A DNA stretch of 24,455 nt from the IMG/VR virus record IMGVR_UViG_2778261278_000008. One strand, given 5' to 3'. Below, in pieces: positions 6,274-12,046 of this stretch. Below the pieces are notes generated by a model. That model was given only the letters and a program-made list of their open reading frames with translations, made no database searches and was not told the origin of the DNA. Origin of the DNA: a virus. Its lineage: Duplodnaviria > Heunggongvirae > Uroviricota > Caudoviricetes. Both the position numbers and the translations under genes were made by a program. Every line of letters begins with the position of its first letter. The first letter of the stretch is position 1.

Positions 6274-9096
6274 ATGACGGCAGAGTACATCAGGGACTGG
6301 CAACAACCGCGCCACGCAGTGGGGCGTGAAGGAACGGGGATCCCCGCTCCTGAATCCGCGCTTTCCTCCTGGCTGGATGCCTACCGGGTAGAGAACGAGC
6401 GCCGCCAGGAAATGGCTGATGCGGCGTTCTCCGCAACGCCGCTGGGCAACCTGATTAATAAAAGCCTGGACGCACAGGAAAAACAGGACAAAACCATCAC
6501 ACTGGCAGGAGACGCCAGAAAACAGGCACGCGGCGCGGTGGATGAAGCCATGGCCTCGCTGCGCCTGCTGCCGTCCTATCTGCGCGATCCGCTTATTCGC
6601 CACCTCTCCTTCCTGCGCAAAAAACAGGAAGCCGATCGCAGGAAAGGCAAAAAGAGCTGGCAGGCGGAACGCTATGCATGCGGAACCCTGCGCAAAATAT
6701 TCGAACGTCTGGATCGCACTGACGGACGCTGGCTGACACCGGGTTATCGCTCCCTTGCCGGACGCGAACGCCTGGATGATTTGCTTTACCTGCCGCAGCT
6801 CAACAAACGCCAGATACAGACGCTGGCCACCATGACGGCGGCGATGTTCAGCAGCACCTTCGAAAAACTCTGCGATGGCTTTGGCGCGACTAATGGTGAA
6901 CTAACCATGGATGTAACGCTGAAGGCGTATCAGATGCTGGCCCGCATGGCGTTACACCTGCACGCCATGCCTCCACATTATGACGCACTGACAACAGACA
7001 AAGACCGGAGGAACGAACCGGACACGGAGCTGCTGCCGGGCGCAATCCTTCGCCTGACCTGTGCGGAATGGTGGAAACGCAAACTGTGGCTGGTACGTTG
7101 CGAGTGGAGAGAAGAACAACTCCGCGCCGCCTGTCTGGTTTCCAGAAAAACATCGCCCTATCTGAGCCAGGACGCGTTAAGCGAGTTTCGCGCACAGCGC
7201 GAGAAAACACGCGATTTCCTGAAAAGTTTCATGCTGGAAAACGAAGACGGGTTCACGATTGATCTCGAGACAGTGTATTACGCGGGAGTAAGTAACCCGG
7301 TTCACCGTAAGGCAGAAATGATGGCCACCATGAAGGGACTGGAACTTCTGGCCGAAGCCCGTGGCGACAGAGCGGTGTTTCTGACTGTCACCTGCCCGTC
7401 AAAATACCACGCAACAACGGAGAACGGTCATCCGAACCCCAAATGGAACGGGGCCACCATGCGCGACTCCAGCGATTACCTGGTTAACACGTTTTTTGCG
7501 GCGGTCCGCAAAAAACTGAACCGCGACGGCCTGCGCTGGTATGGCATCCGCACGGTGGAGCCTCACCATGACGGCACCGTGCACTGGCATATGATGGTCT
7601 TTGCTCATCCGGAAGAAATCGACAGCATCGTGGCCATCACCCGCGATATTGCCATTCAGGAAGACCGCCACGAGCTGGGCAATGATATTACTCCGCGCTT
7701 TAAGGTGGAGTATGTCGACGGCTCAAAAGGCACACCAACCAGCTATATCGCGACCTACATCGGAAAAAACCTGGACAGCCGCGCCATGGATGGCATCGAC
7801 CCGAAAACGGGCAAACCACGCGTTGACTACGAAACCGGAAAATCAATGGCCGAGAGCGTGGAGCGCGCCATCGGTTGGGCACGCCTTCACCGGGTCCGCC
7901 AGTTCCAGTTCTTTGGCATCCCCTCCCGTCAGGTGTGGCGTGAACTCCGCCGCCTTGCCAGCCAGATGGCACGCAACCCGGAAGGCCCGCAACGGCTGAA
8001 GGATGACGCAATGGATGCGGTACTCGCTGCCGCTGATGCCGGATGTTTTGCCACCTACATAGAGAAACAGGGCGGCGTACTTGTTCCACGCAAAGACTAC
8101 CTGATTCGCACCGCCTACGACCTCGCCGATGAGCTGAACGATTACGGCGAACAGAGCGTACAGATTTACGGGATCTGGTCACCACTCATCGGGGAATCCT
8201 CCCGTGTATGCACGCATCCGGATAACTGGAAGCTGGTAAGACGCAAACCGGAAGCGGAAGACAGCGCCCGCGAAAATGGTTTTGACCTTCAGGGCGGCCC
8301 TGCCGCCCCTTGGACTCGTGGCAATAACTGTCCCCGTGTACAGGAAACAGACAACAACGGGACAGAACAGCCGGAAGAACGGCCAGCACCGTGGCCGCAG
8401 CTCCCTGACGGCGTTGAAGTGAACGAATGGATGCATTCACTGAAACGGCACGAACGCCGGGCGCTGATGCGTTCGCTGCGTGACAAACAGGCAAAAAACA
8501 GCAGTGATGAAATGCAGAGCTGGACACAGAGCCGCAAACAGCAGCGGCCTTTGCCTGATAACCACGAATTACTCGCTAAAGAATGGCGGGAGTCTGCTGA
8601 ATCTCTCGGCCTGCATATCGGTGAACAGCAGATGCAGCACCTGTTACGGGGCGGCAGTCTGTACGTTGACGGCAGCATCATTGCACCGCAGGGATTTGAA
8701 ATTGTACGCAAACCGGATACCCGACCGGACAGCCGGATCACGCAGCTCTGGCAGCGCCTGAGCCGTAACCACGGCGTAAGCAGTACGGAGATCCGCCATA
8801 ACCCGGTCGCCAGCTATCTGGAACAGCTGGGGGCATCAGACCCCGAAGCCGCCGCACGCCTGGCATCCACACTTCAGCAGGACCAGAACACCATGAAAAC
8901 ACCCGTTACCGTGCTTTCTGACATGCTGCGCGCCATCCGCGACGCAGAGCACGCACAGAGAATCAGTGAAACTACTGAACGCGCCCGCCGCAAAGCAGAC
9001 CTGCTGCGGGGTGGCCTGACCAGTGGAAACAAAAAACAGACAGAAACGGGATTCACAAATCCCGTAAATGAGCAAAAAACGCGCCGCGATATATGA
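6274..9096 (+). CDS. A: Rolling-circle replication initiator endonuclease (P2 gpA family, HUH superfamily)
   Basis: 940-aa ORF with HUH motif (GTVHWHMMVF) and a Y-x3-Y catalytic tyrosine pair (SYIATYIGKNLD) downstream, as in P2/186 A proteins. Located after the early small ORFs as in P2. Confidence 0.9.
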   Translation: MTAEYIRDWQQPRHAVGREGTGIPAPESALSSWLDAYRVENERRQEMADAAFSATPLGNLINKSLDAQEKQDKTITLAGDARKQARGAVDEAMASLRLLPSYLRDPLIRHLSFLRKKQEADRRKGKKSWQAERYACGTLRKIFERLDRTDGRWLTPGYRSLAGRERLDDLLYLPQLNKRQIQTLATMTAAMFSSTFEKLCDGFGATNGELTMDVTLKAYQMLARMALHLHAMPPHYDALTTDKDRRNEPDTELLPGAILRLTCAEWWKRKLWLVRCEWREEQLRAACLVSRKTSPYLSQDALSEFRAQREKTRDFLKSFMLENEDGFTIDLETVYYAGVSNPVHRKAEMMATMKGLELLAEARGDRAVFLTVTCPSKYHATTENGHPNPKWNGATMRDSSDYLVNTFFAAVRKKLNRDGLRWYGIRTVEPHHDGTVHWHMMVFAHPEEIDSIVAITRDIAIQEDRHELGNDITPRFKVEYVDGSKGTPTSYIATYIGKNLDSRAMDGIDPKTGKPRVDYETGKSMAESVERAIGWARLHRVRQFQFFGIPSRQVWRELRRLASQMARNPEGPQRLKDDAMDAVLAAADAGCFATYIEKQGGVLVPRKDYLIRTAYDLADELNDYGEQSVQIYGIWSPLIGESSRVCTHPDNWKLVRRKPEAEDSARENGFDLQGGPAAPWTRGNNCPRVQETDNNGTEQPEERPAPWPQLPDGVEVNEWMHSLKRHERRALMRSLRDKQAKNSSDEMQSWTQSRKQQRPLPDNHELLAKEWRESAESLGLHIGEQQMQHLLRGGSLYVDGSIIAPQGFEIVRKPDTRPDSRITQLWQRLSRNHGVSSTEIRHNPVASYLEQLGASDPEAAARLASTLQQDQNTMKTPVTVLSDMLRAIRDAEHAQRISETTERARRKADLLRGGLTSGNKKQTETGFTNPVNEQKTRRDI

Positions 9097-9138
9097 AGCG
9101 CGCATAAAACAGGCAAAAACGGGATTTCAGAATCCCGT
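9046..9138. repeat. Two copies of a 20-bp palindrome ACGGGAT-N6-ATCCCGT with conserved AAA flanks, 73 bp apart; candidate centromere/operator for the downstream ParMR-like genes
   Basis: Copy 1 at 9046-9065 lies inside the 3' end of gene A; copy 2 at 9119-9138 lies about 35 bp upstream of the parM-like start. The arms are exact reverse complements. Confidence 0.6.
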
Positions 9139-9172
9139 AAACGATTAATTAATCAACATAAGGAAAAGCGAC

Positions 9173-10132
9173 ATGAAAATTTGTATCGATGACGGCTCCA
9201 CCAACATCAAGCTGGCATGGACTGAGAACGGCGAACGCCGCAACGCCATCAGCCCGAACAGCTTCAAGTCGGAATGGTCTGCGCCGTTCGGTGGCACGCA
9301 GCCCGCGAACTACATGCTTGATGGCGTGCGCTATGGTTTTGATCCGGTCAGTGATCGCTTTGTCCAGACGACCGACACGCAATACCAGTACAGCGATGTG
9401 AATGTCATTGCCATTCATCACGCGCTGGTCAAATCAGGCATCACACCACAGGAAGTGGATGTGGTTGTCACCCTGCCACTGAGCGAATATTTCGACACAA
9501 ACGCACAGCCGGACATGGCCAACATCAACCGCAAAAAAGCAAACGTCATGCGCCCGGTGGCGTGCCAGAACGGAAAAGCATTCACTATCCGTAACGTACG
9601 AGTTATGCCTGAATCCATTCCGGCTGGTTTTAAAGCACTGGCTGACATGAGTCCGTTTGAATCCCTGCTGATTGTGGATTTAGGCGGAACCACGCTGGAT
9701 GTGGCAAAGGTTCAGGGACAACTGGCAGGTATCAGCCAGGTGTTTTGCGATCCACACGTAGGCGTTTCCCTGATGGCCGATGCCGTACTGTCGGTGATGG
9801 CCACTAACGGTATGCGTACCAGTCACCACATCGCCAATACCATTATCGAACATCGCCATGATGAAGCCTGGCTGCGCCAGCACATCCACAATGACGCGCA
9901 TTACGCCAGCCTGATGGCGGTTATTCGTGAAAAGGAAGAAACACTGAAACAACGCGTGATCCGCGCGCTGGCGGTTTTTTCGGGTTACGGGCGGGTGATG
10001 GTTGTCGGTGGCGGGGCGGAGATTGTGGCACCCGCTATCCGCGAAGCCTGCGGAGTTAATGCGACTTTCATCGCGGACGGGGTGCCACAGTTTGCTCTGG
10101 TTAATGGGCTGTACGCAATGGACAAGGAGTAA
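9173..10132 (+). CDS. parM: Actin-like segregation ATPase, ParM/StbA family
   Basis: 319-aa ORF with actin-fold motifs: phosphate-1 ICIDDGSTNIKL, phosphate-2 LIVDLGGTTLD, adenosine VVGGGAEIV. N-terminus closely resembles R1 plasmid ParM as recalled (MLVFIDDGSTNIKLQW...ISPNSFK..EW). RBS AAGGAAAA. Confidence 0.85.
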   Translation: MKICIDDGSTNIKLAWTENGERRNAISPNSFKSEWSAPFGGTQPANYMLDGVRYGFDPVSDRFVQTTDTQYQYSDVNVIAIHHALVKSGITPQEVDVVVTLPLSEYFDTNAQPDMANINRKKANVMRPVACQNGKAFTIRNVRVMPESIPAGFKALADMSPFESLLIVDLGGTTLDVAKVQGQLAGISQVFCDPHVGVSLMADAVLSVMATNGMRTSHHIANTIIEHRHDEAWLRQHIHNDAHYASLMAVIREKEETLKQRVIRALAVFSGYGRVMVVGGGAEIVAPAIREACGVNATFIADGVPQFALVNGLYAMDKE

Positions 10133-10136
10133 ACCA

Positions 10137-10448
10137 ATGACGACACCAACCAGACGGATAAGTTTCTATCTGAAGCCCGCCGCCGTCAAGAACGAAGGCG
10201 AAGCATGCGCCTGGCTGGACAGCCTTACACCAGAAGCCCGCAAAAGTGGTCAACGCGTGGCTTTTCTGGCCGGGCTGGCACTACTGAAAATGAATCCGGC
10301 AGAGGCTTACCGACTGGCTGCATGGGCTGACGATGAAGCGTTATCCCTGACGCAAACCAGGACAGAACGCCTCCTGTCACAGCCAGTACCAACCGCACAG
10401 ATAACCAGTCAGATGGCCGGAAATATCAGGGCGTTATTTCCTGAATAA
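10137..10448 (+). CDS. parR: ParR/StbB-like ribbon-helix-helix centromere-binding protein
   Basis: 103-aa ORF starting 5 nt after the parM stop, with AAGGAG RBS. RRISFYLKP...LDSLTPEARKSGQRVAFLAGLAL...NIRALFPE parallels R1 ParR (RRTIAFKLNP...LDSIPQGERSRLNRAALTAGLAL...ILRSLFPKE) as recalled. The ORF-track start at 10002 is an upstream in-frame extension overlapping parM. Confidence 0.75.
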   Translation: MTTPTRRISFYLKPAAVKNEGEACAWLDSLTPEARKSGQRVAFLAGLALLKMNPAEAYRLAAWADDEALSLTQTRTERLLSQPVPTAQITSQMAGNIRALFPE

Positions 10449-10455
10449 CACAACG

Positions 10456-10475
10456 TCAGGGCGAGTTCGCCCTGA
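10456..10475. other. Perfect 20-bp palindrome TCAGGGCGA-GT-TCGCCCTGA immediately after the parR-like stop
   Basis: 9-bp arms are exact reverse complements. No flanking U-tract, so it is either a weak terminator/stabilising hairpin or a protein-binding site. Confidence 0.4.
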
Positions 10476-10511
10476 TCTCCATCTCAGAACATAAACAAGA
10501 AGAGCGACTTA

Positions 10512-10895
10512 ATGAGCAAAATCAACTATCAGGCATTACGTGAACGTTATTCACCTGCACCAGTACCAAAATGCCCTATTTGCGGCGAAGAAATGTCAAT
10601 TCAGCGAATATCTGGAGCACAGGTTGTTTATGGCTGCTCCGGTTATGGTGATGATGGAGATTTCAAAATTGGTCGAACTCTTGCCGACGAACATTATGAA
10701 AAATCACGCGTAACAGTGTTGGATGTCGGGGATCCTGAAGTATTGGCGCTACTTGATTGGCTGGAAACCAAAGACAACCGAATCGCTGAACTGGAAAAAA
10801 TCGCCACTGACTATGCACTTAAATTCCAGAAAGCACAGGACGCATTAAAGTACGCCGCTTTGCTGCATAGCAGGACAGCGCAGCTACAAGACTAA
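10512..10895 (+). CDS. Hypothetical protein with CPxCG zinc-ribbon-like motif and C-terminal coiled-coil-like segment
   Basis: 127-aa ORF; KCPICGEEMS...YGCSGYG (3 Cys) and heptad-like C-terminus (IAELEKIATDYALKFQKAQDALKYAALL). Same strand as parMR, 63 bp downstream. Confidence 0.55.
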   Translation: MSKINYQALRERYSPAPVPKCPICGEEMSIQRISGAQVVYGCSGYGDDGDFKIGRTLADEHYEKSRVTVLDVGDPEVLALLDWLETKDNRIAELEKIATDYALKFQKAQDALKYAALLHSRTAQLQD

Positions 10896-10985
10896 CTTAA
10901 AGCGGAAGATTAATACATGGTGGGTCGGGGTAATTTGTTTTTATCCCGACAAATAAACAAAAAAGTGGACTATCTCTGTAGTATC

Positions 10986-11516
10986 TTATTCAGCATCGTC
11001 TCGTGCAGTCTGTGCATACGTCACAACAACGCCCAATGCATTAGTTTTCTTTTCAACATAGATAATATTGTCATATTCATAGTTACCATACGGATAGCAA
11101 ATAAGAATATTTTTATGCAGATCGGGATCATCAACAAACGCTCCGGAACAGCTTCTTGAACTACCGGATGTATACTCATACGGTGCAACATATGATGATG
11201 TTACTCCTGGTAAAAAATAAGTCACCATCATAAGAGGGATAATCAGGAATATCCCTGTAAGAATGCAAGAGCCAGCATAAACCTTCAGGTATTCCGACAG
11301 TCCTTTCCAGCCACTTTGCTTCACTACCCCCCTCTTCACCAGAAACAAGGAGAAGAAAAAGGACATACCCATACTACACAAGATGTAATAATTGGATATA
11401 CGCGAATTAAGATATGTAATCCTGTAGATATCTGCCCTCCACCAGTAAAAGAGGAAAATAATCCCTAGCACTGAAACAGTCATGCAAATCAAATAAGGAT
11501 ATGAATCTTTCTTCAT
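10986..11516 (-). CDS. AT-rich cargo gene encoding a 3-TM membrane protein with a C-terminal extracytoplasmic-type domain
   Basis: 176-aa ORF on the opposite strand to its neighbours. Three hydrophobic helices (YLICMTVSVLGIIFLFYWW; YYILCSMGMSFFFSLFLV; CILTGIFLIIPLMMVTYFL) followed by a Cys/Tyr-rich about 70-aa tail. Visibly lower GC than the flanking phage genes (by eye, not computed). Confidence 0.6.
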   Translation of the reverse strand: MKKDSYPYLICMTVSVLGIIFLFYWWRADIYRITYLNSRISNYYILCSMGMSFFFSLFLVKRGVVKQSGWKGLSEYLKVYAGSCILTGIFLIIPLMMVTYFLPGVTSSYVAPYEYTSGSSRSCSGAFVDDPDLHKNILICYPYGNYEYDNIIYVEKKTNALGVVVTYAQTARDDAE

Positions 11517-12046
11517 GTCTTGCGCTCATTAAAATTTCCCTGCTACGAACAAATTTACCATCCGTTTTTTGCGCAGAAAACAGCACGATGCACACTGCAC
11601 GATAGTGCACAAATTTGCACAATTTTTTTGAACGACTTTTTACCCTTCCGGCCCGCATGGCGGCTGGATCCGTCAAGGATCCGTGCGTGCACAAAAAAAC
11701 GCGTTTTTTCTGCGCGCAGGTGACGGGGGAACAGCCCGCGTTTCAGGGGGTAAATAGCATCCCCTGAACGATGTCGCAGCGACACAACAGAATGGCTGTA
11801 TTTCTCACGCTGAGCGTGAAGAATACGTGAGGGATTCTGATTTGATGGGGTGAAAGGTAAGGCCGTCAAAATCGCACTGAGGCGGCGAGAACATGCAGTC
11901 AACGCGGTGGGATTGCGTAAGAGTCTGACCGCCGATGATGGCAATAAGCAGAAAAGCGTCGTGAAATTATCTGACTGATACAGGAGCTGGAGAGTCGGGG
12001 CATAAATTTTTTATGCCCCGGCGAAGCAGCAGACAAGCGAAGCGCG
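11517..12046. other. 530-bp noncoding region between the cargo slot and portal gene Q; expected location of the cos/packaging site by synteny
   Basis: No convincing ORF. Contains TGCAC direct repeats (11589-11620), GGATCCGT x2 (11666-11684), palindrome A6-CGCG-T6 (11694-11709), inverted repeat TTCAGGGG/CCCCTGAA (11742-11768) and a 10-bp-stem hairpin (11997-12019). Cos itself not identified. Confidence 0.4.

Follow-up and report, generated by a model that had tools for sequence, protein, structure and literature searches.

Twin dyad-symmetric boxes 5' of parM as a candidate ParR-binding centromere/operator in P2-like prophages

We analyzed a stretch of 24,455 nucleotides from the IMG/VR virus record IMGVR_UViG_2778261278_000008 (the window), which is a P2-type prophage of the P88 group (Xuanwuvirus, Peduoviridae) from E. 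coli, and considered two short dyad-symmetric boxes that lie next to its actin-type segregation genes, parM and parR. On the basis of the sequence, the two boxes probably form the ParR-binding centromere/operator (parC-type) of a prophage type II partition system, in a layout unlike the iteron arrays of plasmid R1, and we put the probability of this reading at roughly 0.7. One basis for it is the placement of the boxes directly 5' of parM, where the centromeres of type II systems lie (PMC2241845, PMC4489591). The sequence anatomy, the linkage of the boxes to parMR, the conservation of their number, spacing and position, and the family assignment of ParM and ParR are established. No description of the cis site of the prophage parMR cassette was found in the searched literature, and if the reading is true, the dyad-box layout would widen the known range of type II centromeres.

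An earlier note on this DNA had described twin ACGGGAT-N6-ATCCCGT elements spaced by 73 bp, the first of them embedded in the coding end of the replication gene A. Both elements were confirmed at the positions given in Table 1, and the first (box 1) indeed takes up codons 925-931 of the 940 codons of gene A. When the pattern ACGGGATNNNNNNATCCCGT was searched for with up to two mismatches, the two boxes were the only matches in the 24.5-kb window, where half-sites also showed no enrichment elsewhere. Shuffled sequence gave a mean of 0.06 matches to the box pattern, and none of 100 shuffles reached two. The dyad is longer than first described, with 8-bp arms (ACGGGATT and AATCCCGT) around a 4-bp centre (8+4+8), and the boxes span 35-127 nt 5' of the parM ATG. 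The elements had also been considered near-identical over 26 bp. While their arms are identical, the elements overall are only ~81% identical, and the true repeated unit is a 42-nt direct repeat that includes the box. The A-tracts across 9025-9172 are phased at ~10.25 bp, which places them in the top 0.4% of sliding windows.

The two genes that follow were correctly recognized in the earlier note as a type II partition pair, as is now supported by Pfam, by identity to R1 and by a profile match to a ParR of known structure. ParM contains the StbA_N domain (1.6e-81) and the ParM C-terminal domain (6.2e-69), is annotated in PHROG as 'partition protein' and is 47% identical to R1 ParM over 318 aa. 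ParR is assigned to PF10784 (StbB family; 2.1e-24) and is 28% identical to R1 ParR in the aligned part. The ParR-family profile matched pB171 ParR (2JD3) with E=0.005 over residues 9-74, that is, in the ribbon-helix-helix N-terminal domain, and this match supports ParR being a dimeric ribbon-helix-helix DNA reader. ParR alleles of the P88 group show 49-97% identity, with the N-terminal 18 residues (including the strand TRRISFYLKP) and the C-terminal tail GNIRALFPE being invariant and the linker between them diverging. The mosaicism of ParR is strong (L002-L206), with alleles at ~95%, 85%, 53% and 49% identity, ParM at 94-100% and the divergence confined to ParR residues ~19-95, outside the fixed first 18 and last 8 residues, which suggests recombination or diversifying selection in the linker.

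Conservation of the boxes was examined in close relatives. A search of the viral collection with the palindrome pattern yielded ~120 loci, about one third of which contained no A, ParM or ParR gene and were taken as chance matches to 14 bases. As a set found by the palindrome is biased by its ascertainment, the test was repeated on 81 viral contigs that had been ascertained by ParM alone, all of which present at least 98% ParM identity. In 80 of these 81 loci both palindromes are kept with parMR, with no more than two mismatches in the 14 specified positions and with a spacing of 73 bp (72 in one), so that the proposal of the earlier note withstands the case that it had named as evidence against itself, namely boxes missing beside the same parMR. 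One natural variant (L152, IMGVR_UViG_2657245439_000011) carries an exact 73-bp deletion between the repeat units, equivalent to window 9041-9113, and retains one hybrid box, ACGGGATTTAAAAATCCTGT, and a new A tail, ...KQTKTGFKNPVTD. The boxes vary mostly at 9052, 9119 and 9136 and in the central 4-6 bases (in box 2, at 9128 and 9130), with almost no change in the cores CGGGAT and ATCC; positions 9032-9040 are invariant (65 distinct sequences). When compensatory changes in the arms were sought, one suggestive case was found, in box 1 of the Hafnia relative (C2/G19 to T2/A19), and dyad covariation is thus not demonstrated. Parallel changes in the two boxes were also observed, as both left arms of L200 read ACAGGAT and in L206 the T of AATCCC is replaced in both right arms (AAACCC and AACCCC), a pattern that may reflect gene conversion of one repeat unit by the other, or parallel selection.

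More distant lineages were gathered via ParM and ParR homologues and then via the contigs that encode them. A contig scan with ParM yielded only three close relatives and no distant lineages, and tblastn of ParR against plasmids returned prophage-like records only, as plasmid ParRs are too distant to be reached by that route. The parMR genes were found in the same slot after gene A in P2-like prophages of other genera. The Hafnia locus (L207; ParM 62% and ParR 43% identical) has the boxes ATGGGATTGAGGAAACCCAA and TCGGGTTCATTAAATCCCAG at a spacing of 73 bp, the Plesiomonas locus (L209; 62% and 42%) has GCGGGACAACAAAAACCCGA and GCGGGACAACACTAACCCAC at 72 bp, and a metagenomic locus (L218; 95% and 74%) has GCGGGATTCATGAATCCCAA and ACGGGATTTGAAAATCCCAT at 73 bp. 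In all three, exactly two GGG-N10-CCC boxes are found in the 250 bp 5' of parM, those of Plesiomonas lying in a 26-nt direct repeat. The GGG of box 2 precedes the parM ATG by 51-59 nt across lineages (55 in Hafnia, 59 in Plesiomonas and 52 in the window), and the spacer between the boxes has diverged (~29-49% identity in a gapless comparison) with its length being held. The background rate of GGG-N10-CCC is 0.7-1.45 per 7 kb, and we estimate the probability that chance alone would give two such boxes, correctly placed and spaced, at about one in a million for each lineage.

The presence of the boxes follows the type of ParR. All four lineages in which the N-terminal strand of ParR reads TRR(I/V)SFYL have the boxes, and none of the seven lineages with other strands has them. 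The strands of these box-less ParRs are NRKISFYL, PRKIAFNL (two metagenomic lineages), KRRTIAFKL and others, and their upstream repeats are of other types. In Serratia and Enterobacter (NRKISFYL; L210 2882-2947 and L211 2883-2950), a 19-20-bp inverted repeat, AGGAACGAAATAGAAAAAT, is found with a 28-nt gap and with smaller palindromes flanking it; this repeat may be a second centromere layout in the same prophage slot. R1, IncFII(K) and a Pantoea plasmid-like locus present direct iteron arrays, and GGG-N10-CCC is absent from them.

The boxes travel with parMR and not with gene A, and together with parMR they are found behind at least four different upstream genes. Depending on the lineage, the open reading frame (ORF) that overlaps box 1 is gene A, an ORF of either 155 or 167 aa, or a small ORF. 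In L061, an A gene of 31% identity is followed by another ORF, both boxes are intact and the homology to the window starts at AAAAAACAGACAG, 16 bp 5' of box 1; in L061 and L200, the left edge of cassette homology is at ~9031. L200 and L093 have a different A gene, then an ORF of 155 or 145 aa, respectively, and then the same two boxes, while in Hafnia (L207) a 167-aa ORF precedes the boxes and the other upstream context is a P88-type A. The last ~22 codons of gene A are thus cassette-derived, as the same 22-residue tail ends unrelated ORFs in L061 and L200. Moreover, the gene A tail is found in five natural forms that result from the 73-bp deletion and from length changes in two A6 runs, 9031-9036 and 9074-9079. 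With A5 at the second run, gene A gains 17 residues and continues through box 2 (...TGFTNPVNEQKRAAIYEARTKQAKTGFQNPVND); A7 gives the tail ...NEQKNAPRYMKRA, and A5 at the first run gives ...GNKNRQKRDSQIP. The first run, like the second, varies between A5, A6 and A7, and A-run variants were seen in L045, L086, L090, L115 and L198; such changes may be mutational noise, or slippage that makes alternative A tails. The earlier note had proposed that placing one site inside gene A would couple assembly of the partition complex to the end of this gene. This proposal was not borne out, as the boxes overlap whichever ORF enters the cassette and as the A tail is variable, both of which argue against coupling to replication. 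The sequences rather suggest that the overlap of box 1 with gene A arises incidentally, where upstream ORFs extend into the cassette.

In the mechanism that we propose, each box would comprise two inverted half-sites, GGGATT and AATCCC, with centres ~13 bp apart, and would probably be bound by a ParR dimer of dimers in an Arc/Mnt-like manner, the ribbon-helix-helix dimer inserting its N-terminal strand (TRRISFYL) into the major groove. As 73 bp amounts to seven helical turns, the boxes would lie on the same face of A-tract-phased and probably bent DNA, and such placement would permit one compact ParR-DNA complex. This complex would lower transcription that enters or starts at box 2, and the conserved C-terminal tail of ParR (..N..LFP) would hold the ends of ParM filaments, which would in turn push extrachromosomal phage genomes apart once these are excised or as they replicate. 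By analogy with SXT/R391 or with CGP3 AlpAC (PMC4446434), the probable substrate of the system is the phage circle, either excised or replicating.

The interpretation of the boxes as a centromere/operator has several weak points that need to be considered. Two boxes (four half-sites) are far fewer than the ten iterons of R1 (PMC2241845), such that far fewer ParR dimers would be bound and a full ring may not form; extra weak ParR sites of the AAAAC type are our conjecture. In the natural variant L152, an intact parM is accompanied by just one box. Of the 1456 places at which complete E. coli genomes carry the cassette, 1454 are on chromosomes and two are on plasmids. Among little-diverged relatives, conservation in the boxes does not clearly exceed that in their flanks, and the frequent alleles 9052 T>C, 9119 A>G and 9136 C>T weaken the dyad one-sidedly, with no symmetric compensation. 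The AlphaFold model of the ParR monomer is of low confidence (predicted local distance difference test score, pLDDT, of 56), its N-terminal strand being unmodelled. Finally, the earlier note had placed box 2 across the probable promoter of parM, but a promoter scan of 8800-10700 found no sigma-70 consensus site, and the operator role of the boxes is therefore a candidate role only. A manual candidate, consisting of a -35 element TTCAGA at 9126-9131 and the ATTAAT at 9148-9153, is weak, and read-through from the early operon is an equally possible alternative to a promoter at box 2.

A more specific form of the centromere reading, which we consider tentative, is that of a minimal two-box centromere, in which two ParR tetramers placed seven turns apart on bent DNA would suffice for ParM capture. 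The P2-like phage would then use the system to segregate or position excised or replicating circles, in a phage 'mitosis' like that of CGP3 AlpAC, and not for plasmid-style maintenance. The two-box layout would bear on the question of what number of ParR dimers is enough to engage a ParM filament. The twin boxes also offer a precise mutable handle (20 bp x 2, with a fixed 73-bp spacing) on the role of actin-type segregation in an integrating phage, for which stabilising excised circles, organising lytic replication and interfering with plasmids are candidates.

Among known systems, the closest comparison is to R1/NR1 parMRC (stbAB), which shares the order site-parM-parR, the ParM identity given above and a ParR of the same Pfam family. 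The two ParRs are also alike in the N-terminal strand (RRTIAFKL in R1 and RRISFYL in the prophage) and in the C-terminal tail (KNAMKLIN and GNIRALFPE), and both loci have A-rich phased DNA 5' of parM. R1 parC has ten direct iterons of 11 bp, five on either side of a 39-bp promoter core, and is described as strongly curved (PMC2241845). As the earlier note had held, the layout here is unlike it: two 20-bp dyad boxes lie 73 bp apart, and a repeat search found no iteron arrays. The direct iterons of R1, for which L123 260-430 served as the comparison sequence, are A/C-rich, whereas the prophage has dyad boxes, with no consensus promoter found. R1 is, furthermore, a low-copy plasmid replicon, while here the carrier is an integrating P2-like phage. 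As for pB171 ParR, its N-terminal domain is matched by the prophage ParR profile. The ParRs of pB171 and pSK41, both of the ribbon-helix-helix type and of low sequence identity to the prophage ParR, reportedly bind direct-repeat arrays.

Two further systems are instructive with respect to integrated elements. The srpMRC system of SXT/R391 has an upstream centromere of four short direct/inverted repeats that is bound by a small adaptor, and acts on the excised circle (PMC4489591). It thus resembles the prophage locus in being a ParM-type system of a normally integrated element, but its repeats are of 13 bp and differ in sequence and arrangement, and no resemblance to ParR can be recognised in SrpR, while the prophage ParR clearly belongs to the StbB family. 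In the Corynebacterium prophage CGP3, the AlpAC system comprises an actin-like filament and a DNA adaptor that binds sites (alpS) 5' of its own operon, and is required for the phage DNA to be replicated and transported efficiently (PMC4446434, PMC5539076). AlpAC belongs to another actin-like subfamily with an unrelated adaptor and a Gram-positive host, and can nonetheless, by analogy, be regarded as a plausible functional analogue of the prophage ParMR. With respect to the single box, the operators of Arc/Mnt-type proteins are dyad sites of ~20 bp, in which two inverted half-sites about one helical turn apart are bound by a dimer of dimers. These are, however, single operators of plain repressors that have no filament partner, and the half-site spacing here is ~13 bp.

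The alternative that survives best, although we consider it unlikely, is that the boxes are an operator only, by which ParR autoregulates parMR or blocks read-through from the early operon, with the centromere being a wider, weak array of AAAAC-type 10-11-bp motifs, or with partition not being the function at all. Two boxes are indeed few for a scaffold that captures ParM when compared with the ten R1 iterons (PMC2241845). AAAAC-like motifs are found at multiples of ~10-11 bp (9034, 9044, 9077, 9107, 9117 and 9139) and resemble the AAAAC cores of the R1 iterons, and a tandem AAACGAAC repeat adjoins box 1 in Hafnia; the statistics behind this idea are limited to A-tract phasing. The phasing itself and the nearly exclusive chromosomal location of the element are in line with the same idea. 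Yet characterised type II loci use the same DNA as operator and as centromere (PMC2241845), the strict spacing of 72-73 bp in spite of a changed spacer suggests a defined higher-order complex, and the C-terminal tail of ParR, which is of the ParM-binding type, is conserved.

It is less probable still that the boxes serve another factor, such as a protein of the host or a different phage regulator, or that they are a recombination site by which the cassette moves in the P2 hotspot. Cassette homology does begin just 5' of box 1, and L152 shows a natural 73-bp deletion between the repeats, both of which could be taken to indicate such a site, but both copies are on the same side of parMR and the cassette is thus not flanked by them. 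Moreover, no DNA-binding protein other than ParR is always found with the boxes, the genes 3' of parR vary, and the box type tracks the N-terminal strand of ParR. A role of the boxes as a replication origin is disfavoured, as they travel with parMR behind unrelated A genes; a search with the P2 origin nick sequence gave no match but is uninformative, since the sequence used may be wrong or the origin may differ.

We give little credence to the boxes acting as RNA hairpins, either as minus-strand intrinsic terminators or as plus-strand hairpins that stabilise or process the mRNA between gene A and parM. The terminator scan does list both boxes on the minus strand (8-bp stem, 4-nt loop and T-rich tail), with predicted energies of -10 to -11 kcal/mol and z-scores of -2.7 to -4.5. 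In Hafnia and Plesiomonas, however, the stems are cut to 3-4 pairs (-4.6 to -7.4 kcal/mol, z of 0 to -2.5) while the spacing and the GGG/CCC are kept. Polymorphisms in the arms show no strand-consistent wobble or compensatory pattern, there is no converging minus-strand gene at the site, and no plus-strand T-run follows the stems.

A repeat that merely duplicates coding sequence, be it for a peptide repeated at the C-terminus of protein A, for a small protein or for both (TGFxNPVN), is the least credible explanation. The earlier note had dismissed it on the grounds that the reading frames at the two copies differ, which is true of the absolute frames; this argument is weak, since box 1 in gene A and box 2 in the 26-codon ATG ORF at 9068-9148 share the same codon phase (TGFTNPVN and TGFQNPVN). 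A5 variants even fuse the two, such that A ends with both motifs, and L200 has a synonymous ACG>ACA change in both copies. That the boxes are nonetheless DNA-level elements, as the note had concluded, follows from other evidence. The A tail exists in five forms, and box 1 is read in another frame in one of these (L198), in L093 and in the Hafnia relative. Non-synonymous polymorphisms (F>L, T>A and Q>K) are frequent. The small ORF, which has no PHROG match, is broken or fused by the A-run length variants and itself carries high-frequency non-synonymous polymorphisms, and Plesiomonas keeps the GGG/CCC core of the DNA but not the TGFxNPVN peptide.

The features of the locus are summarized in Table 1.

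Table 1 Coordinates of the boxes and of the adjacent features in the window.
Feature	Coordinates	Strand	Description
Gene A	6274-9096	+	940 aa, rolling-circle replication endonuclease; Phage_GPA 1.2e-130
Direct repeat unit 1	9030-9071	+	42 nt; holds box 1, with AAAAC-type A-tracts 5' of the box
Box 1	9046-9065		ACGGGATT-CACA-AATCCCGT; dyad-symmetric candidate ParR site within the last 22 codons of gene A
26-codon ATG ORF	9068-9148	+	MSKKRAAIYEARIKQAKTGFQNPVND; covers box 2; probably no gene
A6 run	9074-9079	+	Length polymorphic (A5/A6/A7) in relatives; shifts the gene A stop
Direct repeat unit 2	9103-9144	+	42 nt; holds box 2; 73 bp downstream of unit 1 and 81% identical to it
Box 2	9119-9138		ACGGGATT-TCAG-AATCCCGT; dyad-symmetric candidate ParR site; 3' end 35 nt before the parM ATG
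ATTAATTAAT	9144-9153	+	ATTAAT motif, conserved 8-15 nt past box 2 in four lineages; candidate -10 element
parM ribosome-binding site	9160-9164	+	AAGGA, from sequence; invariant among the distinct relative sequences compared
parM	9173-10132	+	319 aa, actin-like segregation ATPase
parR	10137-10448	+	103 aa, StbB-family ribbon-helix-helix adaptor
GC-rich stem-loop	10456-10475		8 nt past the parR stop; TCAGGGCGAACTCGCCCTGA on the minus strand; listed on the minus strand by the terminator scan

Phage P88 and 13 further phage records match the segment 8700-10500 at 94-98% identity. In this segment, parMR occupies a variable slot with gene A on one side and the portal gene on the other; a putative partition system in this P2 hotspot was described by Rousset et al. 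in more than a quarter of P2-like phages (bioRxiv 10.1101/2021.01.21.427644). Of 5426 complete E. coli genomes, 1308 (about a quarter) carry the cassette, that of O157:H7 EDL933 among them. Two P88-like genomes, NZ_CP148288.1 (34,461 bp) and NZ_CP049283.1 (26,762 bp), are deposited as circular plasmids (PLSDB), and may be excised or replicating phage caught at sequencing, or rare plasmid-state lysogens. A contig of 226 kb labelled as the Gram-positive Vagococcus sp. WN89Y (L125, NZ_JBQPOM010000071.1) contains an E. coli-type prophage parM of 97% identity, and this label is likely due to assembly contamination or mislabelling.

The GC-rich stem-loop past parR has no T-run after it on the plus strand, and may be where transcription of parMR ends, or a terminator for leftward transcription. 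The genes that follow parR differ among relatives (P88, L061, L207 and L209). In the window, an Ead/Ea22-like protein (10512-10895; PF13935, 3.3e-29) with an N-terminal CxxC...C zinc-ribbon-like motif is encoded directly 3' of parR. Lying between parMR and the portal gene, the AT-rich region 10900-11550 contains a minus-strand ORF (10986-11516) for a 176-aa predicted membrane protein (phrog_1416, function unknown), which seems to be a moron of its own within the P2 hotspot.

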